Below, one piece after another: positions 3,396 through 50,069 of a stretch of 56,008 nucleotides of DNA. Made by a program: the position numbers and the translations under genes. The stretch comes from Sphyrna mokarran (Eukaryota). The stretch lies in NCBI GenBank assembly GCA_024679065.1, contig JAGIQG010000040.1:12276001-12332008 (forward strand), written 5' to 3'. Numbering within the stretch: position 1 is the first letter of the stretch; every line of letters begins with the position of its first letter. Below the pieces are notes generated by a model, which was not told the origin of the DNA, searched no databases, and saw only the letters and a program-made list of their open reading frames with translations.

Positions 3396-4069
3396 ATGCT
3401 AAGGGCCTAGTATTTTCAGCTCTGAGCTGAATCCACAATCTCTGGAGGGAAGATCGCTATACTGAAGGCGTGAGGCCCAATCACTCTGTCTGGTTTTGTT
3501 TTGTAATGTTTATGTTTTCAAACATCTGTTCCCCTTGTTGGGAATCTCACTGCGGTTTGAGAAAAGCAAACACTGATCCCACACTAAACTCCCCCTAACA
3601 CAGGACTGAGCAGAGAGTGTGAAATAGAACTGCTGTGAGTGTGGATAGTTTTTTTTTTAAAAAAAGGAGAGAAACACTCCTTCAATTTCAAATCTTTACC
3701 CTGCTTCTGTAGCATCTAGGACTCCGAGTGAATCTCAGTGTCTCTCACTCTCTGTATTGCTCCCTCTCCCTATCTCTCTGTCACTCTGCATCACTCCATC
3801 TCTCTCTCTCCCTCTCTCTATCCCTCTCCCACCATGTGGTTCATATTAAGGGGTCGTATCACAGAGAATACAAACACTCTTTCTGTTTCTGTCTTGGCAG
3901 AATTAGCAACATTAGTGGATCTTTCCAGACTGGATTCACACAATACAGACAGAACGCTGCCGAGCTCAGCTCAGGTGGGACCGTAATGTTACAATAAGAT
4001 TGAATCTGTAATCATGCAACTGTCTAAACATCACCTGATTAATTTGATTTATTATTGTTACGTAGAATA

Positions 4070-4655
4070 GAATCATAGAATCCCTACAATGCAGAAGGAG
4101 ACCACAGTCTCCCCAGTGTGGTGCCTGTTTGGGCACACATAGGGAGAATTTAACATGGCTGGTACACCTAACCAGCGCGTCTTTCAAACTGTGGGAGATA
4201 ACCAGAGGAAACCCATGCAGACACGGGGAGAAGGTGTAGACACCACACAGACAAAGAACAAAGAACAAAACATGGGAAACAGGCCCTTCGGCCCACTGAG
4301 CCCGCGCCGCCACCCCGATGTTCTCACCTCTACCCGTGATCCCTGTCCATGTTTATAGATCTATGGATTAAAAACCAAATTTGAGACAATTTAGGGAGAA
4401 TTTGTTTTGCCAATTAGCCTAAGAGCACATCTTTGGGATGTGGGAGGAAACCGGAGCACCCGGAGAAAACCCACGCAAGCACGGGGAGAATGCGCAAACT
4501 CCCACAGACACAGGCCCAAATCCATGTATCTGCACAGCACAGCGATAGTCACTGAGCTGTCGTGTTGCCCATCAGAAGGTCCAGGTCTTGCGAATTGAAC
4601 CTGGGTCCCTGGCACTGTGAGGCAGCAGTGTTAACCACTGTGCCACCCTGCCATC
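4070..4655 (-). mobile_element. tRNA-derived SINE copies (HE1-like) with LINE 3' fragments
   Basis: ggaaaccggagcacccgg..acccacgca..acggggagaatg core, ends in ccactgtgccacc (A-box, reverse strand). Confidence 0.75.
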
Positions 4656-4937
4656 AGGGGGACACTGTTTAAAATTCAGGAAGTTCCCATTGAAGATAGA
4701 GATGCAGAGGAATAATTTCTTCTCTCAGGGGGTGGTTAGTGTTTCAAATTCCCTTCCCCAGAGAGCAGTGGGCGTTGGGACATTGAACATATACAAGGGA
4801 GGGGAGGTTTATGGGGGAGACAGGCAGCGAAGAGGAGTTAAGGCCACAGTCAGATCAGTCATGATCTTATCAACTGGGGGAGCAGGCTCGAGAGGCAGAA
4901 TGGCCTCCTGTTCTATGTGGTATCTGTGTGATCACTG

Positions 4938-5175
4938 CCCTCAGCATTGCAGGAACACTGTCTGACTCTCTCCATCTCAATCACTTCCTCCCTCCCTCTC
5001 TGGGACTCTCACCCCATTGCTATCCTCCCCTCTCTCTGTTACTCTCTCTCTCTCTGAGACTCTCACCCCATTGCTATCCTCCCCTCTCTCTGTTACTCTC
5101 TCTCTCTCTGAGACTCTCACCCCATTGCTATCCTCCCCTCTCTCTGTTACTCTCTCCCTCTCTGAGACTCTCATC
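4938..5175 (+). repeat. Second copy of the ~52-bp minisatellite block
   Basis: Near-identical to 2905-3180. Confidence 0.85.
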
Positions 5176-5489
5176 CGCAAAAGGAGATTAAGGCTGGGTT
5201 TGCTGGAAGATGGGATTACAGGGCACAACTAGTCTTTATTTCCCAAGCTGGGACAGATGCGATGGGCTGAATGGCCTTTCCTGCACTGTAACCTTTTCTC
5301 TTCTTTCTGTTAGCCCTGTTGATGGGTGGGACGGAGGAGTGAGGTTGTTTTCAATAAGAAACAAGAAGAAAAATAGAAGAATTTTTTGAGACAAAGCTGA
5401 TTTTTCCTGATGTTCCCCCCGCCATCAAATTGAGATAGCGATACTCCCACCTGCCCCCTGAACCCCCCCAAATACATTTGCCCCAGTGT

Positions 5490-5760
5490 CAGCACGGTGG
5501 TACAGTGGTTATCCCTGCAGCCTCACTGTGCTAGGGACCTGTGGGTCATTTGCACGTTTTCCCCATTTCTGTGTGGGTTTCCTCCTGTTACCTCCCCCAG
5601 TCTGAAAGACGTGTTGGGTTAGGGTGGATTGGGCCATGCTTAAATTCTCCCTCAGTGTTACCCCAACAGGAATGCGGAGACGAGGGGATTCTTATAGTAA
5701 CTTCACTGCAGTGTTAATGTAACCCGACTTATTCGTGACACTAATAAATAAACTTAAACT
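5490..5760 (+). mobile_element. HE1-like SINE
   Basis: gcacggtggtacagtggtt head, gtgacactaataaataaac tail. Similar copies at ~10420-10590, 13330-13610, 25690-26000, 31300-31640 (+) and 21830-22120, 54478-54740 (-). Confidence 0.75.
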
Positions 5761-6770: not shown

Positions 6771-6881
6771 GGGGAGCCATTGGGTGAGGAAGGAAATGCA
6801 GCCACATATGAAGAAAAGCAGCTGTAAAGATGGAGAAGGGACACTGAGAGGGACATTCTGACAGGTCCACTGATCAATTCC

Positions 6882-7550
6882 ATGTTCCGAGCAGCAATTT
6901 TAGAGGGTCTACCGACTTCGGCTAAGTCTAGATTGGAGGAAGTGGTAGGCCTGGAGTCAAAAAGCTATAGAGAATTCTTAGATCATGTCATCCACGCGGT
7001 AGAAAGACACCGCAAGGAGGAAAAGAATGCAGACAAGCAGCTGAAAGACGTGCAGCGCAAACTTCTCCAAGCTCAGCTGCAGGAAATTAAAAACAAAGAC
7101 AAGCAGAAATTAAAAGAGGACTCCACACCCAAGAAAATTGCACCGATGGTGGCTGACCTAACGATCGGAGAGATACCCACACTACCGCAAGGGAGAAGTG
7201 GAGGTGGAAGTCAGCCCATCATAACCTATAACATTTCTGGTTTCCCACTGTCCATGACTCCAGGAGGTTACGATCCAAATTACCAAATAATTGGAAACCC
7301 CAGAACCAAAGTAACTGGAATGAGAAAGGACAGGGGCAGGGAAGTGGTGGACTACCCTATCAGAACCAGAAGGGACAAAGTCAGGGAAATAATCAAGGTC
7401 AGAAACAGGACCGCCACCTGGTCCTCCAGGTGTATGTTGGGGGTGTGGGGAAGCAGGACATATAAAAAGAAACTGTCCTCAGAACCCTCAAAGACAAGGA
7501 GGGAACCAGCAGTATGTAAACCACCAGGTAATGCAAACACCGCTAAATGA
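6882..7550 (+). pseudogene. gag: Retroviral gag C-terminal fragment (capsid C-term/nucleocapsid)
   Basis: Capsid-like helical segment. CCHC knuckle in a shifted frame. Lies upstream of the protease motif. Confidence 0.75.
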
Positions 7551-7759
7551 CCCCCAGGCGTCCCAAGGACCAGTGAATCATCAGGGTTTCCTATAGGGAG
7601 GCCCAGAGAACCCCGAAATGGTAGGGCAATACGTACAAATAACGGAAACAGCAAACCAGGAACCCATAATTAGTGTTAGAGTAGGAGGGGTCGAGGTCCC
7701 CATGATGATAGATACCAGTGCTACTTGTGTATGCATACAGGCAAAGTATGCAGACCACC

Positions 7760-9922
7760 TTTCCAGATATTACGATAGTGAGATGTAACAGGGTTAATCC
7801 AGCCGACTATATGCCATTACCTCATGAAGGAGAGGAGCATGAGGGTGTAAGAGAAGCAAAAACATTCATGAAACTAAGAAAAGACTTAAAAGCAGAAAAA
7901 CTAGACACAGAAAGGAAAAGAGTACTATATGTTGATGGCTCGTGCTACAGGGATCATGTAGGAAACCATGCAGGTTATGCTATAATTGAACAGAAAGGGG
8001 AGACATTTGAAGTGTTAGAGGCAGAAAAGTGTGAGCAACCTTGCTCAGCCCAATTAGCAGAACTCAAAGCATTAACTAGAGCATGTGAATTGACAGAAGG
8101 GGAAATAGTGGAGGTATATACGGATTCAGCTTATGTGCATGGAGTGTACCACCTATTTGGAGCAATATGGAGACAGAGGGGATTCATGAAAAGTGGAGGA
8201 GGACCAATACAGCACGAAAGTCAAATAAAAGCATTAATATGAGCAATGATGGGTCCAAAAGAATTGGCCATAATCAAATGTCAGGCGCATAAAAAGGGAA
8301 AGGATAATGTTACCAAGGGAAATGCTAAAGCTGATGAGGTCGCCAAAGAAGTATCAGGATGCATCATGACCACAATAGTCCCAGTCGAGGTGAGACCACA
8401 CCCAGGACCAGGGATGGGGAGCATAGATCCCCAACACACCCTAGAAAATGTGGTGCAGTTACAGGAGGAAGCCATGATAGCTGAAAAAACAGTGTGGAAA
8501 GATAGAGGAGCAGTGCAGTGTTAACATGATAGAGTATGGAGAAATGGGGAAGGGCTGATCGTAGCACCTACATCATTACTAACCTTACTAATCAGCGAAG
8601 CACACGGAGTCAATCACTGCGCAAGGGGGGAGGTGACCAGAAAAATAAAGGAGGAAAGATTCTGGTCACCTTACCTGCAGAATTCAATTGATTATATGTT
8701 AAGTCAATGTGAGGTATGTGCCCAGAATAACATTAGGAAAGGTATAACTGCTCCTATAGGGCACATACCAATTCCTGAAGGGCCATTTAAGCACCTATGC
8801 ATGGATTATGTAGACATGGGGAAATCGGTGAGAGGAAAGAGATATATGTTGGTGATAATTGACAGATTCAGCAGATGGATAGAAGCAACACCATCCAAGG
8901 ACCAAGGGTCTGGAACGGTAATTAAATTCCTGTCAAAAGAGATCATTCCAAGATTTGGCTTACCCACTCAATTGAGTTCAGACAATGGATCCGCATTTAT
9001 CGGAAGGGTACTGAGAGAAACTCTCTCAGCACTACGGATAAAGCAGAAGTTTGGTTGTGTGTACCATCCTCAGTCTCAAGGAATGGTAGAGAGGGCAAAC
9101 GGGACCCTCAAGGCCAAAATAAGTAAAATTTGCAGTGAGACAGGGATAAATTGGATTGATGCACTGCCACTAGCACTAATGCAATGCAGAAGTCAAGAAA
9201 ACAGAACCACGCATTTAAGTCCACATGAAATGATGACACGAAGAGTAATGCCGGTACCAAAAATTAGGGGATCGGGAGGCCCTACACTAGAATGGTTAGA
9301 TCGAAGTACAAAAGAATATATACAACAATTAACTATTATACACAGAACTATATTTGAACAGGAGAAGGCCAAGGAGGAGGGGAATCCGGTGGCAGAACAC
9401 CAGATCAAACCTGGAGATCGCGTATATATCAGAAAGTTCCGGAAGCGCTGGGGCGAACCCAGGAGAGAAGGACCATTTGAAGTAATCAAAGTCTCTCCTA
9501 CGGCTCTGCAAGTAGAAGGCAGTACACTGTGGTATCATTTAAATCATTGTACCAAAACAGTATCAGAGATAGAGGTTGATGGAGGAGTTGAAAGTACCGA
9601 AAGCCTGGATAGGAGTAGCGATGAGGAGGAAGGAGAGCCAGGGGAAAGTCCTTCTAGCCAAACACAGGATCAGGATAGGAATGCAGAAATTGAGGGTGGT
9701 AAGAACGATTTTATGTCTGAGTTGGTTGATGATCCAAATGTCCAACCTGATGCCCTTGGCCAAGGCTCAGGAGGTAATGGGGAAAGAGCAGAAGCCTCTT
9801 TTCCCACCTGGGACTTGGGGACCATCTCCCTCCCAGACTTTATTGACTTTATTGGATTCTTTATCAGCAATTTTCCTACTGGGAGAAGACTCAGTGAGCT
9901 CCGCTTGTCCAGTAAGAGATAG
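7760..9922 (+). pseudogene. pol: Retroviral pol 3' half (RNase H-integrase), one frame broken by stops at 8240 and 8522
   Basis: ORFs 7718-8242, 8246-8524 and 8633-9922 share a frame. CMDYVD, SSDNGSAF, HPQSQGMVERANGTLK, GPF motifs. Confidence 0.9.
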
Positions 9923-10720
9923 TGGGGCAGCAGCAAATACACTGGGCACTATGGATGGTAGCTATACACTGAACCCTAAACATTTGAAAACAAACCCTGG
10001 TATTTGTGTTCTGTGCCATTCGAGTGTGGGATTACTATTTCTTCCTGTGTTGTGAGAATGGCGGCCACAATGCTGAGGTCTCATCTCCAGGATACAATCC
10101 TTTGTAAACATAATAGAGATTTTAAGCTGTTGATTAAAATCTTTCCATGCCAATTGCAGTAATGTCCAGAGGAAAGGGAGAAACCAACACTGTTTGGTAC
10201 CAGTTATGCTGCACGGATGTCAGTAAGCTGTCTGAAAGATGACAGATTACTACCAACAGGGCTCCATTCTGAATTATCTGTCAGGGTTATCCCCAACCCC
10301 TTCTCACTCTTCAAATCCCTCACAAAGTAGAGAGACTATTCATCTGTGTTGAATGAGGGTCAATTTTGAGGATTTATGGAAAACTCTTTCCAAAATGTAT
10401 ATCATTTTGCCCCTATCATGGAGCAGCATGGTGGCACAGTGGTTAGCACTGCTGACTCACAGCATCAGGGATCTGGATTCAATTCCAGTCTCGGGTAACT
10501 GTCTATGTCAATTTTGGACCTTCTCCCCGTGTCTGAATGGGTTTCCTTCCAAATGTTCCACTTTCCTCTCACACTCCAAAAGATGTGCCGGATCATAAAA
10601 GAGATTTAAGTGTTTCTGTGTTTGTGCACTTTTTTAAAATTCTGTTCCATCTGCATTCTAAATCATAACTTTTTTCCCTTGAATCATGTCTAATTACAAT
10701 CTTTATTTCCTTCCTGACAG

Positions 10721-11622
10721 TGAACATAATCACAATTGGGACACTGATGAGCAGAAACTGTGGTCTGTCCAAATGTGTCACTCATTACCTGGTGGCCATG
10801 TCAGCGGGGGATCTGCTGGTCGTTATCCTCGACCTGATATTGAGACACATTCCTATTGTTTATTGGAGAAAGTTTTATTTCCTGCTATCAGTCCCCATGT
10901 GTAACATCCACGCTGTCCTGCTTTACGCAGCCACTGACTGTTCTGTCTGGTTCACCGTCACTTTCACCTTTGATCGATTTGTGGCCATTTGCTGCCCCAA
11001 ACTGAAAAGTAAATATTGCACTGAAAAATCGGCGGCTGTGGTTCTGGGAACAGTGACGGTGCTGAGCTTTCTAAAGAACATTTTCTGGTATTTTATGTTA
11101 TTAAAAAGGTATCAGCTGGCGAACAACCCCTGGTTTTGTGGTTTGACATGGGATGTTGTGGAATGTCTGGTCTGGACAATAATTGAGTTCCTCCACAACA
11201 TTATAACCCCATGTGTCCCATTCGCCCTGGTTCTGCTGCTCAATGCTCTCACCGTCAGACACATTTTAGTGAGCAGCAGAGCCCGCAGGAGACTCCGGGT
11301 TCACAGCAGTGGGAAGAATCCTAGTGACCCAGAGATGGAAAGTCGAAGGAAGTGGATCATTTTACTGTTTCTTATCTCAGGCAATTTCATTGTCTTATGG
11401 TCGACATTAATGGTTTATTCAATATGGATGCGGATGTATGGCTTGGGCTCTGAGTCAGTAAGTTTACCTCTTTTTGTTATGGAATTGGGCTTCATGCTGC
11501 AACTCATAAGTTGTTGCACAAACACTGCCATTTATGTTGTGACACAGACTCATTTCAGACAGCAGCTAAGAGATCTACTGAAATACCCCCTTACTGCAAT
11601 TCGTCAACTCAATACACCCTGA
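10721..11622 (+). CDS. GPR139/GPR142-like class A GPCR, main exon (exon 1 not found)
   Basis: ttcctgacag acceptor. CGLSKCVTHYLVAMSAGDLL, FTFDRFVAIC, SCCTNTAIY motifs. Open to stop. N-terminal/TM1 exon not visible upstream. Confidence 0.8.
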
Positions 11623-38860: not shown

Positions 38861-40197
38861 ACATAGAACATAGAACATAGAACATTACAGCACAGAACAG
38901 GCCCTTCGGCCTTCGATGTTGCGCCGACCAATATAAAAAGCAATGCCCCTCCAAACTAAACCATTCCCTTCTCTTCCATATACTTATCAACTAACCTCTT
39001 AAACGCCACCAAACTTGGCGCATCTACAACTGCTGCAGGCAGGGCATTCCACTCCCGAACCACCCTTTGGGTAAAGAACCTACCTCTGATATCCGTCCTA
39101 TAACTATCACCCCTTAATTTAAAGCTGTGTCCCCTCGTGCTAGCTTTCTCCATCCTAGGAAAAAGGCTATCACTGTCCACCCTATCTAAACCTCTAATCA
39201 TCTTATATGTTTCGATAAGGTCCCCTCTTAGCCGCCTCCTTTCTAACGAAAACAACCTCAAATCCCTCAGCCTCTCTTCATAAGACCTGCCCTCCATACC
39301 AGGCAACATCCTGGTAAACCTCCTCTGTACCCTCTCCAATGCCTCCACATCTTTCTTATAATGTGGGGACCAGAACTGCACACAATACTCCAAGTGCGGC
39401 CGCACTAGAGTTTTGTACAGTTGCAACATGACGTTGCGGCTCCGAAATTCAATCCCCCTACCAATAAAAGCTAAGGCTCCATATGCCTTCTTAACAACCT
39501 TCTCGACTTGACTGCCTACTTTCAGGGATCTATGCACATACACACCAAGATCCCTCTGTTCATCAAGACTACTAAGAATCCTACCATTTGCCCTATACTC
39601 TACACATTTATTATTTCTGCCATAGTGCATTACCTCACACTTTTCCACATTAAACTCCATTTGCCACCTCTCGGCCCAGCTCTGCAACTTGTCCAAGTCC
39701 CTCTGCAAACTATAACACCCCTCTTCACTATCTACCACTCCACCGACTTTAGTGTCATCTGCAAATTTACTAATCCATCCTTCAATACCCTCATCCAGAT
39801 CATTTATAAAAATTACAAACAGCAGGGGCCCCAAAACAGACCCCTGAGGTACACCACTTGTCACCGAACTCCAAGATGAATATCTCCCATCAACCACCAC
39901 CCTCTGTCTTCTATCTGCTAGCCAATTCCTAACCCAATTAGCTAAATCACCCTCTATCCCATACATCTGCATTTTCTGCAGAAGTCTTCCATGGGCCACC
40001 TTATCAAACGCCTTACTAAAGTCCATATATACCATATCAACCGCCTTACCCCCATCCACCTCCTTAGTCACTTTTTCAAAAAACTCAATGAGGTTAGTAA
40101 GGCACGACCTACCCTTCGCAAAACCATGCTGACTATCCCCAATCAATTCATTACTCTCTAAATAACTATAAATCCTATCCCTAATTATTCTCTCCAC
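38861..40197 (-). mobile_element. Young 5'-truncated CR1/HER1-like LINE (uninterrupted 413-aa RT C-terminus) nested in an older LINE (~38605-40585)
   Basis: QHGF, YMDFSKAFD, GVPQGSVLGP, FADD motifs; (GTTCTAT)n 3' tail. The older element continues colinearly on both sides. Confidence 0.95.
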
Positions 40198-41195
40198 TTC
40201 TGTATCTTTCCGCTCTACCCTTAAAATATGTCCCCCCTCACCCCCTCACCCTTCCCCTGCCCAGCCTTCCACCCCGAGTTTTAGACTCTCCTACCTTTGG
40301 GAAAATATATTGACTATCTCGCTGATCTGAGTCCCTCATTATTTTATGGATTCCTATAAGAACACCCTCAGCCTTGTACACTCCATAGAAAAGAGTCCCA
40401 CTCTATCCAGCCACAAACCATCATGTGTCCCGGTAACATCCTAGTAAACCTTTTCTACACTCTTTCTCGTTTAATTATATCCTTTCTATAATAGGATGAC
40501 CAGAATTGTACACAATATTCCAAGTGTGAACTTACCAATACCTTGTACAACTTCAACAAAACGCCCTAATTCCTGTCTTCAATGTCTGAGCAATCATAGT
40601 AGACGCGACACAAATCTGTTACTCCCGTGCTGACAGTAATGCAAGAGGTTGTTTTTGACCTGTTTGGTGATTTGACCATAGATTAGGATTCAAATTATAA
40701 TGCCAGGTGATCTCCAAAGAAGAAATGCAACTATTCATCTCCCTGAAACCCATCCCCATTTAGATATTGTGTTTTATTTGCTTTTTCTCTGTTTCAAAAA
40801 AGTTGAAGACATAGCCAGCAGTTTAACTTTCCTTCCATGCAGTTTTCATTAATTTCTGTACATACCCTTGCCCTGTTAGTCCTGACAAAATGCATCACAT
40901 TACACTTTGTAATGTTAACTTCCAATTTTCTACTTCTCTGTCCATTTATCCAAACCTTCTATATCGATTTATAATGTAAGCTTTTCCTCCTCACTATTTA
41001 TTACACCACCAATTTGTGTGATATCTACGAATTTACTTATTATATCCTTTGGATCTCTACCATTCTAATTAAATATCTAATGATTCATTGATCCATCTAA
41101 CAGCTTTCTTTGAATTTTAAGCATTACTTTCACTTTTTGTCACCATTCTCCAGAAATGTCCATCGAAGGGTAAAGATAAATCAACTGGCACCTAT

Positions 41196-41278
41196 TTGGC
41201 ATAACATTCAGTTAGTTCCCGCACCCAAAGTTGAGTTTCTAAGTACCGTCATAGTAATGAGCACTGTGAACAGTTATC
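41196..41278 (-). pseudogene. Pseudo-J segment (KLNFGCGN*LNVMP)
   Basis: KLxFGxG motif with in-frame stops, donor mutated to ATAGGT, decayed RSS (TACTATG heptamer). Confidence 0.7.
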
Positions 41279-41860
41279 AGCAGAAATCTACAAGCGCAGC
41301 AACTTATTCAGATTCCAACCAATATCGAAAATAAGGATACTGGCACGTTCATAAATGTTCATAATGGGAGCTTTGACAACTGCCATCGTATGCGAATAGT
41401 AAACCTTAAAAATTATCTGTCACCAAGAGAGGAACAATGCATCTTATAAAATCCTACAAATATATGCACAGCCAAGCACAAATTAAAAACCAAATTGCCT
41501 CGCTTCGTCCAGTGGTGCATTTACGCAGAATTGTTCTGCTTTCAGTGATAGCTATTTTTGGAAGAAGTCGCTAGATGTTTTTGTGAAGTGCTGAGAGCTT
41601 GAGAAAGCCATGTTATATATTAGGCGTGGCTGAGCAGGAGTCTCTCTCTCTCTCTCTCTCTCTCATTCTCATTTAATTGCATTACAAACAACAATTTCAG
41701 CAATACATCTCCTTGCCAGCTATCAGGTGGGTTTTATGATAAAGGCCAGTTAAATGTTTTAAGGAAACAATCCTGAATTGTGGAAACAATAAAGCTCTCA
41801 TCTGCTCTATCTCAATGCCCAGTGAAGCTGTTCTTTGGATTCCCAATGAGAACTGCTCAC

Positions 41861-41901
41861 CCGTTCCATATAAAAATAGTGTTAATTGAAATAACACAGT
41901 G
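41861..41901 (-). pseudogene. Probable internally deleted J relic
   Basis: CACTGTG heptamer, 34 nt, then GTGAG donor. No recognisable nonamer or FGxG. Confidence 0.3.
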
Positions 41902-41974
41902 ACTGTATGGCTCCATGAAGTCACGGAGGGGAAATAACATGTTGAGTAATCATTATCCAGGATTAGTTACTTAC

Positions 41975-42063
41975 TGGGTTCCACAATCAGCCTGCTTCCA
42001 TTGCCAAAGATGAGCTTTCTAGTCTCTCCATGTTACACGCTGTTTGATTCCATAACCAGATCC
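41975..42063 (-). CDS. TCR J segment A (41975-42035, *HGETRKLIFGNGSRLIVEP) with degenerate 12-RSS (42036-42063)
   Basis: KLIFGxG motif and GTAAGT phase-1 donor. Best RSS reading is GGATCTGGT-12-CAGCGTG. The first germline codon is TAA and would need trimming. Confidence 0.85.
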
Positions 42064-42264
42064 ATTGTGATCTCGTCCACCTCTCTCTGTCCTTCTGCCA
42101 TGTCCCAGCATCGGGAATGAGGGGGATGGGGTGGGGTGGGGAATAGGGGAAGAAGATGGGAGGTAAATAATTGTGTACACTCGGTGGGGATGGAAGGCGG
42201 TGGTGGGGAGTGGTATTGGGATGGTGTTATTGAGAGAGCTTGGCTTTCTCCTGTGACGCTGGGA

Positions 42265-42303
42265 GGTTATTGTACGGGTGTTAAGGGAGATTCAACTAAC
42301 GTG
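42265..42303 (-). other. 23-RSS of supporting V (degenerate heptamer)
   Basis: CACGTTA-GTTGAATCTCCCTTAACACCCGT(23)-ACAATAACC. Confidence 0.8.
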
Positions 42304-42614
42304 GTTCAGGCTTTGCCGACTCAGTCCGCAGTAATAGGTAGCCGAGTCGCTTAGTTGCAGTTCGGAGATCTTTAACTGGCTGATTTTCTCAACAGAATCG
42401 ATAGAAGCAGAAATTCTCCCTCCGGCAGCGTTTTCTTTATTGTCCTCTCCGGAAGTGTCTTTCTGAAGCAAATACTTCAGACCCTGTCCTGGGGACTGAC
42501 TGTACCAGTGCACTGTGTACTGACAGAACCCTGAATATTCACAGCTTAAAGTAACCATGTCATCGGCAGCAGAGATTTGGAGAGGCGGATTCTTGGATAC
42601 CAGGGAAGGAGAAT
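42304..42614 (-). CDS. Leaderless supporting TCR-delta-type V segment
   Basis: Poly-T/CCTGCAG acceptor in phase with the NAR J donor. (D)SPSLVSKNPPLQISAADDMVTLSCEYSGFCQYTVHWYSQSPGQGLKYLL...SDSATYYCGLSRQSLN. WYxQ and YYC motifs, extra CDR1 Cys, no leader exon seen upstream. Confidence 0.92.
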
Positions 42615-44187
42615 CTGCAGGATAACAAAAAAATACACTTTTTTAAGTCTTGCCACTTTTTACCCAGGGATTGTGACAGTTGCAGGATTAGCTCAGTTTT
42701 GTGCGATGTAATTATTATTTTAATTCCAATGGAACGAGATTCACTTACTCTATAAACCAGTGTACAATGAGGTGACATTCTATTTTACACAAATAAACAC
42801 AAATGCACAAATGATCTGTAACGATGTTATTAAACTGGAGAGATTGCAGAAGAGGTTAACAAGGGTGTTACCAGGACTCAAGGACTGAGTTACAGGCAGA
42901 GATTGGACTTTTTCCTTTGGTGCATAGGAGACAGACAGGTGATCTTGTAAAAGTGTATAAGGTCATAAGAGGCACTGATAGAGCGAATGAACTCAATTTT
43001 ATTCCCAGGGTTGAGAATCGAGAACAAGAAGGAATTAACGGGAACCTGCACGGAAAAACAAACTTTTTTTTACACAGAGGGTGATGCATATGAGGAATGA
43101 GCTGCCGGAGGAAGTGGTTGAGGCAGGGACATTGGCAACATTTAAAAGACATATCTGTCCAAAATAAAAGTTTTAGAGGGGAATGGGCCAAAAGCAGACA
43201 AATGACTGAGCTTAGATGGGCATTTTGATCGGCACATGGATCAGTTTGGAACAAAAAAACTGTCTTTTTGCTGTAAATTCTGTGAATCTATGAACACATT
43301 GTCAGCTTAGTAAGAGCTGGTTTAAGAGTGAATTATGAATGAGGAATGATCACATACATGAACAGGAAAACAACAGGTTTATCAGGAATATTCATAGTTT
43401 GTGGAAGAATTGGATTTCATTTATAAAGGGGCAGCATCTACCCGAGGGGCCGAATGTCGCCCTTCCATGCTAAATGATTTTACCATATATACTCGGTTTC
43501 AGCTTCCAGTTTCCATGTTGAGACACAAACTGAGGGAATATTTCATTATCAGTGACGCAATCCATTTCTAGAAGTGCTTGTCAAAGCGTAACCCAACTGC
43601 TCACATCACAATGCACAGCAAGATCCAACAAAAATGATTGTGATTCATCAGCTTCAACGGTGCAGAAACATGCCGAACAACGGTGGCCAAATGTACAGAC
43701 ATTTAATTGAATTTAACACTTTCTGGGAGCCTTCCTTTAAAATCTATTTGTTTATTTTCTGTCAGTATTATGATTGCCCTCCTTCACTTTACATTGAAAT
43801 CTCTAATCAGATTCGTTTCATTTACTTGTTGTTGTTTGGGTTTCTTGTTTCTTGTGTCTTGGAAACATATCCCGAAGTCTTGTACTTGTTGTCAGTTGTG
43901 CTCATTCTGTTCAGTTTCCGCAGTGGTTTTACTGTTACTCACTGGATCTCTGATTATTTCATTTTTTTTCTGCTCATTAACTGACGCTCTCCCGGGTTCT
44001 CTGGGCAGAGTTTTCTCTATGTTATAAATTTTATAGAACAGCAGCAGAAGAAGAGACAATTCGACCTACACAGTTATGTCTGTGTAAATATTCCAGACCA
44101 ACCTCAACCCGCCGTTTTCTAATTGATCTTTCCCATCCAGCTCCCTGTGTCAGTCTGTTCTCCCTCTGATATTTTCAAGTTTTGATG

Positions 44188-44650
44188 TAGAGATGCCGGC
44201 GTTGGACTGGGGTAAACTCATTAAAGTCTGGCAACACCAATTTTAAATCCAACCAATTTATTTGATAGTAAATCTGCTAGCTTTCAGCGTTTGTGCCTTT
44301 GTCAGGCGAATGAGGTGTTCTGGTCTCCAAAAGCACAAATATCAGCACAGACAGTTACAGATTGCTGATTAGAATGTGAATCCTTACACCTAACCTGCTA
44401 TGCAAGTCTTAAAGTGGCTAACAGGAGAGGTTAGAGGGATTACTTATAGCCACTTTAAGACTTGAATGGCAGGTTAGGTGTAAGGATTCACATTCTAATC
44501 AGTAATCTGTAAACTGTCTGTGCTGATATGTGTGCTTTTGGAGACCAGAACACCTCATTCGCCTGACGAAGGCCACAAAGGCCGAAAGCTCACAGATTTA
44601 CTATCAAATAAATCGGTTCAATTTAAAATTGGTGTTGCCAGACTTTACTG
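44188..44650. mobile_element. Penelope-derived long palindrome (~200-bp arms) with hammerhead-ribozyme-like core
   Basis: Arms ~44219-44419 and ~44446-44650. CTGACGA-A-GGCC-acaaa-GGCC-GAAA-GC at ~44563-44590. Confidence 0.8.
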
Positions 44651-44779
44651 ATTTTCAAGTTTTCCCATAGATGCATCAGTACCTGCTGCTCCAAACATTC
44701 AAAATGACAGTGAGTTCCACATCCTGGCCGATATTTTAAATTTTGCTTCTCGATATTTAGATTTTCTCTGAATCACTAT

Positions 44780-46051
44780 TGTCAGGAGGCAGAGGTGGTT
44801 TCTGCAACATGTGATTGTATTATTGAATATTAAAAGTAAGATATATATTTAATTGAGTTTAGTTTAGCATTTCTGCACAAAGTAGGGTAAAACTCTAGTT
44901 AGCATGATATCAAACAAATGTGTTTGCATGTATGGGGTTTTTTGTTCATTTTAAATGGTGTCTGTATTATGCCGAGGGAGTTAATGGCATGAAAAATAAA
45001 ATGCTGTAAAGTAGGAATAGGCTGTTCCTTGGGAACCAGGAGCCACCTTTGTATTAGGAAGGCGTTTAACTGGACCCAAGGCTTTAGGAGATACGCAATG
45101 AGACAAAAAACACCTGCTCTGTCAAAGCAGAAACAATAAGTGGAGTAAGGAGAATAAAAAAATCCCAGATAATAAATAACACATAGTTTTAGAAACCAAG
45201 GAACTGAAAGGAAAACGTTCCAGGACAACTGAACTGAGAGGGGGGAGGGGGGGCAAAGGAACTCGAAACTGAACTATGCACTGATTCTCAAAGTTGAAGA
45301 CGGGACAGAGACAAAGGCCCCCAGCTAAATGCAGAGCTGAACTGCACAGACCTGGTAAAGTTGGCCAGCCAGCTTTCAGATATAATTATAATATTGGTGA
45401 GGCCAATGAAGCGGTATTGGCATGGCGACACACCTCTGAGCTTGTATGGAAACTTGAATGCACATGGGAATTCAAGATAGAGGAATAGTGAAATCAAAAT
45501 GCGAAATTCTGGAAGTGGATCCTTGCTGAAAGTAGAGTAGGCAAAGAATTATTTGGTAGAATTTACCAAAGACATGACTTTTCGAACGTGGGGAATGGGA
45601 AACACTCGTGTCTATGTGAGAGTCTGGAGAGGCCAGTTAGCTCATAGCTTTTAATGATCTGTGGGGTTTTGAGGAGCAATTCACAGAAATTTGATTGTAT
45701 GGTATCTACCACTGGGTATTGGAATGGGGTGTAGCTGAAGACAATGACCTTTTGCTTTACTGAGTTTGCATTTACAGGGTACATTATAGCAAAGATTTAT
45801 TTTGCAATCTGTGTTATCCTTAAAGTCTGTGTACAGTCATGAAGAGTTGGGCTGTCATAGTAAATTGTGTCATAGAAAATTTTTTCATGATTGATAAATG
45901 TTTTTATCTTCTATTATTAAAATCTAATTGGCCATCCAGTTATTTAATTCCCCCCATTGTTCTAAAACAGAAGAATACACTACATTATTTCCAGTCAAAT
46001 TTTCATCTGGGAGCTTCCTATCCAATAGTAACATCAACTGGGATTGTAACA
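44780..46051 (+). mobile_element. Solo LTR (1272 bp) with 4-bp target-site duplication CTAT
   Basis: ctat|TGTCA...TAACA|ctat, no coding remnants inside. Confidence 0.7.
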
Positions 46052-48243
46052 CTATCAGATATTAATAGCCCCTTGCTCCAGACACACCCAAAAATAAATA
46101 ATTTGGTCACATACATCTCATTAACCTGTTCGTTACATGAACCATTTCCATGAATCCTCTTCACTGTTCTCTAATCTCCAGATGTAAAGAGACCCCAGAA
46201 ATTGTTGCGGATTGATTTCTTGAGAAATGCAGAAATCGAAGCAAAATTTCCAACTAATAGAAGGAAGAGCGGCCGTTTCACATTTCAAAGCTACGCCATC
46301 AGTCAGTAACGTTGCAGTTTATCTTCTGCCTCAACAAGAAATTCCTGCGTTGACCCATTCCCCCGGACTATTTTAGTGAACAGATATATAACAAACGCTG
46401 CCTTGAATGTGTTTAACACTGACTAACCACTGCTCTTTGCTGTACAGAATTTTCAGATTCACCACAATGGCTTTGACTGAAGAAATTTCTCCTCTTCTTA
46501 ATCCAAATGGCTGAACTGTTATTCTGAAAATCTGACCTCAAGTTATAGACTCCCCCGCCTAGGAAAAAAAAAACAACCACCTAAAATATGCTTTGTCTAG
46601 TCCTTTGAGAATATTGTAAATTCTAATGAGATCACTCCTAATTCCTCCAACCTCAAATTAAAATCTGGGTCTTCAATCTCTTCACAAAAGAAAATGTAAA
46701 TTCCCTCCAAAGTATGTTGACTTTTCTATAACAAAGGAGACCAAATTTTACACAGTATTCCCGACAGGAGTCCATTTCACTCCGAACTTCCACAAGTCTC
46801 ATTATCAATTCGTGATAATTATATTTTTAGCATTCTCCAGAGATAATCCGACCTATCTCTCCCTGTCGATTAATTGCGTATTGCTTGTTCAAAAAAATCT
46901 CATCACAATTCTTTGCTATTCTCCTGTTCTCCCTCAACGATTTCCACATCATCCCCCTCTCTCAGCCCTAACTTCACATTGAGCTACACTCCATCTTGTA
47001 GTGTGGCACCGTCATCAGACCGAACAGAATAGATTTCCGGCAGATTTAGCAACTGATTGCTTGGCATCTAAGGCACAATGGGCCATGGACAGCAGAATTA
47101 TACTCAGACAAAATCTGTAACCTCATGAGCCAGCATGTCCCCTGCATTGACATTAGCGAACAAGAGAGTAATACTTGTTCAATGAAAGACTTCAGGAGGC
47201 AATCCCAGCAGTATCTCTATAAGTGAGTTGTCAGTCTGCTGAAGATAAAGTTTAAGCAGTGCCAACATTCTTCCTGCACAGATATCCTTTGGATGATCCA
47301 TCTGGAATTCCTCCAGAGATCCCCAACATCAGTGATGTCAGTTTAATTAACTCTACAAAACTGAGCACCGGCTGAAGGTACTAGAACATAGTACTGGATT
47401 CTGCAAAAAGCTATTGGCCCTAAAATATCCTGGCAAAATTACTGAAGATCTATGCTCCAGGACTAACCATTAACGGTAGTAATTTGAACTAAGAAAACTA
47501 AAGTGATTTGTTAAACGGAGGCTATTTAAAGAAATATCGGGTCGAACGTCAGTAAGTTCAGTCACTGATTTCTCTATTAAAACATTCCTTCCGACAGCAA
47601 TAAGTTCATTATTCCTGAGGTCCGTTGTGTCATTTTCCTTTTTTTGTCTCCTGGTTCAGGTATTGAATGAGTCGCTGTGGTTAAATAAACCGGCCGCAGT
47701 GACACTGATCTCAGTCAGCCGGTATTTCATTGACATTCCAGGGCTAGGACTGCAATCTACTGCCCAGGAGAGAGAGCTTTGTGATCCCGTTGTCGGTCTG
47801 GAAGCGACAGCCAGATCTCCCTCTGTCACAGTTAACATCCAGAATGGATTCCGAAGTGTTGAGTGTGTTAAAAGCTGTCAGAAGTGTCAGAGTTCTTGAT
47901 GCTGATGTGCTCCTTAAACCGATAATCATCCAGATTCTCAACTCCCACATCACACCTAACACTGGCACCCCCACCCCGTGCCTCACCACCCTCTCCCCTG
48001 AAGCCTCGTCCCACTATCCCTGTCCCACTGACCGCCGATTCCATCAGCTCTCAAAGAGACTTTCCCCGGGACTGAAATGGAGCCGGTTCCAGAATCACAC
48101 CCTGCTCCCAACTCGGAATCTGTAACGGATGATTTTCCACAGGAAGATTGGATGGGATTGAAACCAGACTGATCACAATGATAAAGTGAAGGGGGACATT
48201 AAACGAGACAGACTGTAACAAGGTGGGATTTGGAGTCACTTAC

Positions 48244-48332
48244 CGGCTGTGACCCTCACCACCGTCCCGGATCCATCCACATCATAATATTTACACAGTG
48301 ACTCCGCCTTCAATCTCCCCGGTACAAAAACC
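48244..48332 (-). CDS. NAR-type J segment (48244-48293, KYYDVDGSGTVVRVTA) with 23-RSS (48294-48332)
   Basis: Consensus GGTTTTTGT-23-CACTGTG, GxGTxVxV motif, phase-1 GTAAGT donor. Confidence 0.93.
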
Positions 48333-48644
48333 ACCGATATCCCAATCTGCCGGAAAACCATCACCAGTCATTGAGAAGTGTCCAATTATTCGGGGGATTT
48401 AAAATCAATAAATAATACTCAAGGTTTTAACGTCTCTGTCGGTTCAAACTGTAATTTTGTGAGGCCCGATCTCTCAGTAAATGGCCGCAGGAAGGAAATA
48501 TTCACTTTATATATAGCAAAAAAAATCAAGGAAAGATGTGAATGGTGGAGATTACAGTAGAAATAATCCCGATCACAGCGATAATATCATCAAACCAATG
48601 ATTCACTCTCTGGGTACTGAGTATTGATAGTGTAATTGTGCACA

Positions 48645-48716
48645 GGTATTTGTTCAGCTTCTTTCCACAGTGACCATCCCATATATTACACAGTGTTACA
48701 ATTCAGCATCAAAACC
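48645..48716 (-). other. D segment (48673-48688, TAATATATGGGATGGT) flanked by two 12-RSS
   Basis: GGTTTTGAT-12-CACTGTG [16-nt D] CACTGTG-12-ACAAATACC. IgH/IgNAR-type 12/12 configuration between a 22-RSS V and a 23-RSS J. Confidence 0.92.
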
Positions 48717-49062
48717 TCGGGGACTGGGTGGGATGTTGGAACATGAATTAAACAGCGCGGAAAGTGGCTCCCAGTTCCGGCTGTGAGCCGAGGATCCCAT
48801 CTGGTGTCAGGGTTTGTAACTGGGATCAGTCATTTCCATTCTCAATTCACCGACAGCACTCCCGGGAATGACAGCCCCATCCACTCACACTCCGTATTTA
48901 TAAACCTCAACATAGCAACGGTGATAATCAGGTCTTATTAAAAATAAACTGTGGCCTCAGGAGTGTGAGGGATTGGCGGGTAGTGGGATTGGGGGGCGCG
49001 GTGGTGATTCAGGGTAGATTAGCTCCGGTTTTCCCTTTGGTTCTGTGAGAATCCGCAAAGAA

Positions 49063-49100
49063 AGTTTTTGTATCGCCGGAAGCTGAGGCCCATCACTGTG
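49063..49100 (-). other. Recombination signal sequence, 22-bp spacer (23-class), 3' of NAR V
   Basis: CACAGTG-ATGGGCCTCAGCTTCCGGCGAT-ACAAAAACT. Confidence 0.95.
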
Positions 49101-49376
49101 TCTTGTACTTGGCTTTACAGTAATAGGTGGCGGCGTCTTCAACTCTCAAATCCCGAATTTCCAGCGAAAATGTATTTCCTGCTTTGTTCACAGACACAGT
49201 AAATCTCCCTCCGTTGGAGATCAGCTCCCTCTCCTTCCCGGGCTGGGTTTGTTTGAAGAATTCGCCATTTACTAAGCGATAACCATAACCATAGAAATCA
49301 CAGGTGATGGTGAGAGACTGACACTCCTTCTTGGTCACCTCTGTCGGGTTTTGTGTCACTGACTGACTGAAAGATC
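49101..49376 (-). CDS. IgNAR-like V segment (NAR-TCR V)
   Basis: TTTCCAG acceptor. SFSQSVTQNPTEVTKKECQSLTITC...GGRFTVSVNKAGNTFSLEIRDLRVEDAATYYCKAKY. 60 residues between the canonical Cys, with no CDR2/C'' region, as in VNAR. Extra FR1 Cys. Followed by an RSS. Confidence 0.93.
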
Positions 49377-49524
49377 CTGGAAATTAAACACAGAGAGTTT
49401 GATGGACCATCAGATCCGAACCACACAACGGGGCTAAAACCCCAAACAGTGTCTGTAATTGGGATGGACTGGGACAGCTTTATATCCAATCCACACAATG
49501 TGGGTTAGTTTGATCGGTACTCAC

Positions 49525-49567
49525 GGGGTAAACAGGCACACAGGGTGAAAACAAGAAGGATTCCCAT
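49525..49567 (-). CDS. Leader (signal peptide) exon of NAR-type V segment, MGILLVFTLCACLP
   Basis: ATG at 49567, hydrophobic 14 codons + 1 nt, GTGAGT donor at 49524. Phase 1 joins in frame to the V exon (..LP-R-SFSQSVTQNP). Confidence 0.92.
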
Positions 49568-50069
49568 CTCCCTGCTGCCCGGAGCTGATGGTTTATGTGA
49601 CGGGGAGCTGGAGACTGCAGAGTCTGGCTGCTCTGGGACACTGGATCTCAGAACTGAACTGAAATACCTCAGGCCTGAACATTGTTAATTTAGGCCACGC
49701 CCATTGTTTAAAATAAAACTCGAGAATGGAAAGGTGACAGAAAGCTGGGAAGATTCAGTCGAGGCTCCACAGTTATCACTGACTCGGAGCTCCCGACCCC
49801 AAAATCTGATCCCGTCACTCCTCTGGGTGTTGTCTCTCAGGGTTTGTGATTGTCCGTCTTTGTCAAAAGTAAGGAAGATACTTATTCTTTTTGTTTCAGT
49901 GTCCAATTGTAGAAATGGAAGTTAGGGCAGTGATATGCTCCTTTTTCTAGATGTAGGAGATTAGGGAACTTTTTAGTGTCCCTGGTAACTATGATCAGCA
50001 GTGTGATCAGCTGCAGTTCCTCTCACACTGCAGGGTTCGTTTGGAGCAGCAGCTGGAAACACTCTCGCT

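Follow-up and report, generated by a model that had tools for sequence, protein, structure and literature searches.

The window, the whole 56,008-nucleotide stretch analysed, lies at the end of the 12.3-Mb contig C994 of Sphyrna mokarran (C994:12276001-12332008) and holds a complete NAR-TCR-delta minicluster, or cassette, with its own C-delta constant region. Within it, the supporting V and a D-delta are fused in the germline, and the 23-RSS that appears to belong to the V is a D signal, a conclusion of which we are practically certain. The minicluster is a form of NAR-TCR convergent on TCR-mu and carrying a germline V-D fusion, apparently undescribed within the literature surveyed.

Inspection of the minus strand revealed, in order, a leader, a NAR-type V with a 22-RSS, a D between two 12-RSSs, a J with a 23-RSS, the supporting V, J-A, a decayed J, J-B, C, and connecting-peptide and transmembrane exons; all positions given for the cluster are on this strand of the window. 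The NAR V leader exon (49525..49567) is supported by a contig of run X3 (organism C), which skips the intron from 49374 to 49524; the run shows a NAR V-D-J joint as well as the leader splice, neither of them assignable to these clusters. The N-terminal NAR-type V (49374-49101) and its 22-spacer RSS (49100-49063) occupy 49063..49374, the 16-nt D (48688-48673) lies between two 12-RSSs identified by RSS scan (48645..48716), and the J (48293-48244) follows a consensus 23-RSS (48332-48294; together 48244..48332). The signals flanking the NAR V, D and J depart little from consensus, and a NAR-type V with its own D and J (49374-48244), as in NAR-TCR, is present. The same two Vs are paired in homologous gene models of many elasmobranchs. 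The splice acceptor of the supporting V, at 42615, is in phase with the NAR J, and a motif scan found no leader exon belonging to the supporting V itself.

Downstream of the supporting V are J-A, a J-delta-1 paralogue (41975..42063; coding part 42035-41975, FGNG, first codon TAA, weak 12-RSS), a decayed J-delta-3 paralogue with two 11-nt deletions (37770..37867) and J-B, a J-delta-4 paralogue with a 12-RSS and FSSG in place of FGxG (34999..35076; coding part 35048-34999). The constant exon (33277..33579), delimited by splice sites, is a paralogue of the C exons behind D-J1-5, as expected of a TCR-delta constant region, and is 75-81% identical in amino acids to the two translocon C-deltas and 54% to catshark P0069. 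The latter is presumably the catshark row IgWVTCRD of table S1 of PMC12227049, a correspondence taken from its NCBI description. A PDB search with the C exon gave generic Ig-C matches only. A connecting-peptide exon with a Cys (30371..30418) and an exon for the transmembrane and cytoplasmic parts (29666..29775; intact by tblastn), which has the Arg and Lys known from TCR alpha/delta chains, complete the gene. All exons from leader to transmembrane are open and the splice phases, checked by eye, fit. Among named proteins, those of Mustelus asterias come nearest (79-87%). The predicted receptor would have three extracellular domains, NAR-type V-D-J followed by the supporting V-delta with J-delta and C-delta. 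Rearrangement of the supporting V to a translocon D-J-C-delta, which we take to be the way in which the NAR-TCR supporting V uses D, is not what the window offers; because it has its own J and C and no free D, the minicluster is a variant of NAR-TCR.

Other elements were noted in the window. The tail of another, type II-like cluster lies at 294-1985 (transmembrane exon 871-764, minus strand; 97.8% to the C994:10.97 Mb copy), and its upstream part is absent from the adjacent window DNA. Two intact single-exon open reading frames of 317 and 338 residues (10669-11622, plus strand, and 14983-15999, minus strand) are seven-transmembrane receptor-like by eye. LTR-retroelement-like RNase H/integrase frames interrupted by stops lie at 6828-9922 (plus strand), and a LINE reverse-transcriptase fragment is found within the J-C intron at 38956-40245 (minus strand).

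The supporting V exon (42614-42304) comprises a V-derived part (42311..42614), with an intact splice acceptor and a 3' end that appears to be ∼2 nt shorter than in unfused relatives, and a germline joint of 7 nt (42304..42310) that does not come from the V end and may be a D remnant, N bases or a remnant of the V-flanking RSS repeat. The exon is followed by the heptamer CACGTTA, a 23-nt spacer and the nonamer ACAATAACC (42303-42265), with 3+1 mismatches to the consensus; the J-A 12-RSS (42063-42036) has 2+3. The earlier note had placed the V end 268 bp from J-A, with a 23-RSS and a 12-RSS and no RSS-flanked D between them, and both the coordinates and the signals are correct: a relaxed scan for paired RSSs 4-40 nt apart over 33580-49200 returned only the NAR D at 48688-48673. 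Its counts of eight codons past the second Cys (GLSRQSLN) and nine before the J Phe, the first being TAA, were also reproduced. The long germline CDR3 that it drew from them is not supported in that form. The V tail is 24 nt after the Cys codon in all seven fused copies versus 19 nt in nine of nine unfused supporting Vs, and the 27 nt of J-A before the Phe fall within the 24-29 nt of J1 paralogues, so that the long tail is mostly family-typical and only 5 nt longer than normal. An untrimmed V/J-A joint is in frame yet retains the TAA of J-A, and productive joints must therefore trim J-A. A heptamer-like site at ∼41900 followed by YGTG was considered as a J and rejected, as the homologous stretch behind J1 in translocon units A and B holds no J.

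The origin of the joining signal was apparent from comparison with the two translocon units. The 39-bp RSS (42265..42303), which now serves the V, matches the 3' RSS of D-A at 35/39 positions and that of D-B at 32/39, as against 18-20/39 for the RSSs of four unfused supporting Vs. Beyond it lies the D-delta to J1 interval (42064..42264): the 268-bp RSS-to-RSS stretch aligned to the D-A/J1 interval with 195 identities in 238 columns and a score of 242, whereas scores against four post-V regions were -44 to -96 and 300 shuffles gave a mean of -57 and a maximum of -14. Farther downstream the window is colinear with units A and B as far as the C exon, J-A corresponding to J1, J-B to J4 and the decayed J to J3; paralogues of J2 and J5 were not found in the window. 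A search of the genome DNA returned 31 matches, the two translocon units among them. The D 5' 12-RSS was located at three places in the genome, none of them in a cluster, and the D 3' flank at 13, namely the two translocon units, seven fused copies and four type II clusters. The RSS and interval match to D-A, together with a D 3' flank that lacks the 5' RSS in the clusters, indicates that the V is joined to the last bases and the 3' signal of a D-delta.

Accordingly, the domain that the earlier note called D-less does lack a usable D but is not simply D-less, since its V ends at a D 3' RSS and D-J1 interval. The suggestion that the tail is an absorbed D holds in that a D was absorbed, as its 3' RSS and D-J interval attest, but not in the sense of recognisable D coding sequence, and alignment of the tail to D segments gave little: the 7 joint bases match D-A at 4/7, D-B at 3/7 and D-C at 2/7. 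Direct V-to-J joining of the supporting domain is supported as a prediction, given that there is no usable D and that the V ends at the D 3' RSS. The captured heptamer and nonamer match D-A at 15-16 of 16 positions in all seven fused copies; in type II clusters, where the V retains its own RSS, the match is 12-13/16 with a 22-nt spacer in the two of four clusters scored. Conservation in the former and decay in the latter fit the pattern expected if the signal were used in fused copies and disused in type II.

The genome contains 13 C-delta exons, two in the translocon units and 11 in clusters, and the 11 group apart from the translocon pair (96/96). Seven were assigned to the fused type and four to type II, an assignment that includes some fused cassettes with no C in the stretch examined and one C with no V in its stretch. 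The translocon has two D-J1-5-C-delta units (A, C994:3851790-3872511; B, C994:5359689-5381040), oppositely oriented and separated by 1.5 Mb, and the 11 clusters lie 4-8 Mb from it or on small contigs. Contigs C1307 and C1427 carry NAR V-D-J and no supporting V detectable by motif. A third D-delta, at C994:4461981 (L081/L082), has an intact 5' 12-RSS and a shortened 3' spacer and stands just upstream of a 12-RSS J array resembling J-alpha. Tandem [V-D-J-V-J-C] clusters with their own C-delta-derived C are organized as in TCR-mu (TRM); their Vs are not both VH-like with orthology to mammalian TRM, V1 being NAR-type and V2 a member of the elasmobranch supporting V-delta family. The minicluster works like TRM and is not a TRM member.

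In the four type II copies (C994:10973154-10988575, C47, C180 and C1271; L032-L040, L073), the V keeps its own RSS and a 61-bp RSS repeat. This repeat is joined to what is left of a D, which lacks a 5' RSS and whose 3' RSS has decayed, and J1 is the only J that remains. The type II supporting domain is truly D-less, like platypus V2-J2, and type II lost the use of D through a different joint from that of the fused type. These clusters also carry fully germline-joined NAR VDJ exons, located after the rearranging NAR cassette and before the supporting V, one per cluster (C994:10983607, C47:31145, C180:63789) and four in tandem on C1271 (42480, 44759, 47053 and 49895); if they were spliced in, chains with four to seven extracellular domains would result. 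Translocon NAR cassettes also look partly pre-joined: four NAR Vs end in a D-type 12-RSS (VD-J; C994:3397706, 3411382, 3418225 and 3602606) and one NAR J has a 12-RSS in front of it (V-DJ; C994:4003642), so that the germline NAR joins in the locus are four VD-J, one V-DJ and seven VDJ exons. Behind supporting Vs lie 61-bp units in tandem, made up of a 23-RSS and a further 22 nt (C994:3400624-3407263, 3607276, 3899213 and 3998310; also P0021), which form arrays of spare V-type signals.

The fusion is inherited and old. Joint length and the last 7 bases are identical in all seven fused copies. Over 2.2 kb these copies separate into two groups, whose members are 96.6-99.6% alike, with 87-88% across the groups, and they form one clade in the V tree (100/100, 20 rows); a joint common to copies that differ this much was not made somatically in a T cell. 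The nearest twin of the window matches it at 97.9% over 19.8 kb, and some fused copies that reach 99.3-99.6% over 2.2 kb may be allelic or duplicated in the assembly. A contig of run X2 (organism B; presumably RNA) spans 42191-42607 with 39 differences and no gap, which suggests that the fusion is present in another species. When the fused V was sought in other species, near-length proteins yielded one match, which lacks the 3' end, and metagenome scans yielded no locus.

In the protein tree of the V (36 rows; 21 of 33 named proteins retained and all catshark rows dropped), the fused Vs are sister to five Mustelus Vs plus P0021 (97/93); the corresponding tree of C domains, with 3 of 13 genome rows and long branches, carries no conclusion. 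These closest relatives, an ENA protein and Mustelus automatic gene models, not DNA, appear unfused. The end of P0004 is that expected of a V followed by a normal heptamer, P0021 reads through the V RSS and its repeat, and the Mustelus models P0005 and P0068 carry, between the V or its repeat and J, a segment that here lies upstream of the D segments, at a distance of 10 kb for D-B and 17 kb for D-A. Because P0004 and P0021 end like unfused Vs and P0005 and P0068 include sequence from 10-17 kb upstream of D, the fusion would be the derived state, and the comparison points to an unfused ancestor in which V and D stood kilobases apart. At least eight Mustelus asterias gene models carry this C-delta (P0005, P0006, P0009, P0010, P0013, P0045, P0067 and P0068), on contigs of different length and six of them with a supporting V, as does one catshark model among the 9 matches of 95 candidates. 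The amplification of clusters is probably older than the fusion.

The reading that we favor, with moderate confidence, is that a germ-cell RAG V-to-D joint fused the supporting V to the D-delta 3' signal and that the inner domain is finished by one V-to-J step. An ancestral cluster, [NARV-D-J]-[V ... D-J1-5]-C-delta, would have been duplicated out of the translocon; one germ-cell RAG event would then have joined the V, trimmed by ∼2 nt, to a D trimmed to at most 7 nt, deleting the DNA between them, and the V-D product would have been amplified. Both breakpoints are at coding ends, the intervening RSSs are gone and the distal RSS is kept, the deletion ends lying within a few bases of RAG cut sites. 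A single joint of this kind explains both ends at once, the V ∼2 nt shorter and the D reduced to ≤7 nt. Shark germ cells are reported to join Ig genes by RAG with trimming and little N addition (PMC2193156).

The 7 joint bases themselves, to which no P or N bases could be assigned, speak less clearly. Their 4/7 match to D-A has a chance probability of 0.07 (P 0.07-0.20 under drift), whereas they match the nonamer/spacer junction of the V-flanking repeat at 7/7, two nonamer bases included; this is the commonest 7-mer there (6 of 27 units), and a rough post-hoc count puts the chance of such a match at ∼0.6-5%. The repeat match favors deletion over RAG. In a stepwise scheme, which we consider somewhat unlikely, one deletion would have removed the RSS of the V and another would have extended from the 61-bp repeat to the D 3' heptamer, the 7 nt being a repeat remnant with no D coding sequence left. 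Short shared motifs at both putative break points and the repeat-to-D joints of type II clusters are in keeping with such deletions, but two events would be needed, each ending within a few bases of a RAG cut site, several other coding-end joints exist in the locus, and type II, with its different V subfamily and the loss of J3/J4, is not a direct ancestor of the fused type. An ordinary V with its own RSS, left beside J by deletion of D and evolving a long germline CDR3 as a fixed scaffold, would account for the gap without a D and does describe the four type II clusters; for the window it is highly improbable, as the RSS is D-derived and the tail and J lengths are near family norms. An error of assembly, or a V-D joint made somatically in lymphocytes of the tissue sequenced, is likewise highly improbable, despite the contig ending with the window and the near-identity of some copies: the joint is the same in copies from both groups, and the X2 contig runs through it without a gap.

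Under a germ-cell V-to-D joint, T cells would build the antigen-binding tip by NAR V-D-J rearrangement and the support domain by joining V(D) to J-A or J-B, the support domain being predicted to form in a single V-to-J step with one N-region. The inner domain would thus need one rearrangement, not two. A toy model in which trimming and N lengths were assumed gave, from 20,000 draws each, mean CDR3 lengths of 15.9 residues with J-A, 12.6 with J-B and 15.3 for type II (S.D. ∼2.0), against 18.1-18.8 (S.D. 2.9) for V-D-J, and 1,747-2,300 distinct loops against 4,039-5,556. The model illustrates how loss of one N-region could leave about half as many distinct CDR3s, with loops 2-6 residues shorter, a repertoire narrower and not invariant; a supporting domain serving as a low-diversity scaffold, as the earlier note proposed, is a hypothesis.

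Whether the joint arose by RAG or by deletion, the fused clusters could be recent pseudogene-like duplicates, rarely rearranged or expressed, with the real repertoire coming from translocon cassettes that use D-A or D-B. The degenerate heptamer of the window, the weak J RSSs, the in-frame stop at the tip of J-A, the FSSG of J-B and the partial clusters nearby lend this some weight. It nevertheless seems unlikely, given that all exons are open and in phase, the NAR signals lie near consensus, the captured RSS has been kept in the copies that would need it and has decayed in the others, and J1 signals are weak in both translocon units as well. The window copy in particular may rearrange poorly, because it has, with its twin, the poorest heptamer, a weak J-A RSS and a J-B without the first Gly. 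CACGTTA is the most degenerate version of the heptamer, common to these two copies; CAC is critical and other heptamer positions tolerate change (PMC2193808). For 41960-42640 no RNA dataset was listed beyond three small-share runs, and among the joints listed from these on 33200-49600 there was no supporting-V-to-J joint, a result that says nothing on expression.

Three-domain T-cell receptors evolved separately in sharks and in non-placental mammals. The shared trait had been thought to be protein shape, whereas clusters and a simplified second domain were described for TCR-mu. In this genome the shark receptor has followed the same path, and the coexistence of unfused, repeat-joined and V-D-fused states makes it testable whether the supporting domain is selected for less junctional diversity. 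A germ-cell V-to-D joint, if true, would mean that RAG joining in germ cells, described for shark antibody genes, also reaches a conventional V and D of a TCR. A broader scenario, offered tentatively as possible but doubtful, is that carcharhiniform sharks split NAR-TCR into a separate amplified multi-cluster locus, the counterpart of TCR-mu, in which germ-line RAG twice independently removed the use of D (the V-D fusion and the repeat-D joint) and added pre-joined NAR domains. The clusters would then be expressed as a chain of their own, its diverse tip carried by a semi-fixed stalk, and would display the intermediates by which mammals are thought to have passed.

No earlier account of NAR-TCR clusters that have a C-delta of their own, or of a VD-joined supporting V, was found in a survey that did not extend to the primary NAR-TCR papers (Criscitiello 2006 and 2010, Ott 2021) or to Wang 2011, and such an account may exist. 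Wang and Miller 2012 is said to concern a partially germline-joined opossum VH, which is an Ig gene. The literature surveyed also included PMC6795676, PMC10787021, PMC2435157 and PMC3964593.

NAR-TCR is described (PMC5931798, PMC2275272, PMC12227049) as the doubly rearranging TCR-delta of sharks, in a TCR-alpha/delta translocon and using the TRD C, and in table S1 of PMC12227049 the NARTCR rows hold only V or VV. The minicluster shares the NAR-type V-D-J upstream of supporting V-delta, J-delta and C-delta and the three predicted extracellular domains, but has its own J and C-delta in each cassette and a supporting V pre-fused to a D signal. The same table lists, for great white shark LOC121270133 (NARTCR V(gj)V(gi)V), a germline-joined NAR-TCR V: joining is likewise inside NAR-TCR cassettes, and type II clusters have such exons, but there it affects a NAR-type V and not the supporting V, with no own C listed. 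Great white gene models show joined NAR exons too (P0007). In shark IgH clusters (PMC2193156) an inherited partial joint keeps its downstream RSS, as here, but between Ig segments rather than a TCR-type V-delta and D-delta, and germline-rearranged TCR alpha/beta genes are described in catfish (PMC6170632). Marsupial TCR-mu Vmu-j, attributed to retrotransposition, is likewise a germline-joined supporting domain, but fully joined and invariant, whereas in the shark only V and D are joined and somatic joining to J is still required. Platypus TCR-mu (PMC7615758, PMC3457774) has VH-like Vs in [V1-Dn-J1-V2-J2-C] clusters, V2-J2 being joined without a D, which is described as lost. Both receptors have multiple self-contained TCR-delta-derived clusters in which the second V joins J without a D; they differ in their independent origin and in that the second V of the shark is TCR-type and uses the 3' RSS of a D, and limited diversity is shown in platypus and a hypothesis in the shark clusters. 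Platypus TCR-mu is a closer parallel than the earlier note claimed, since the block, one of many clusters, is equipped with its own C-delta.
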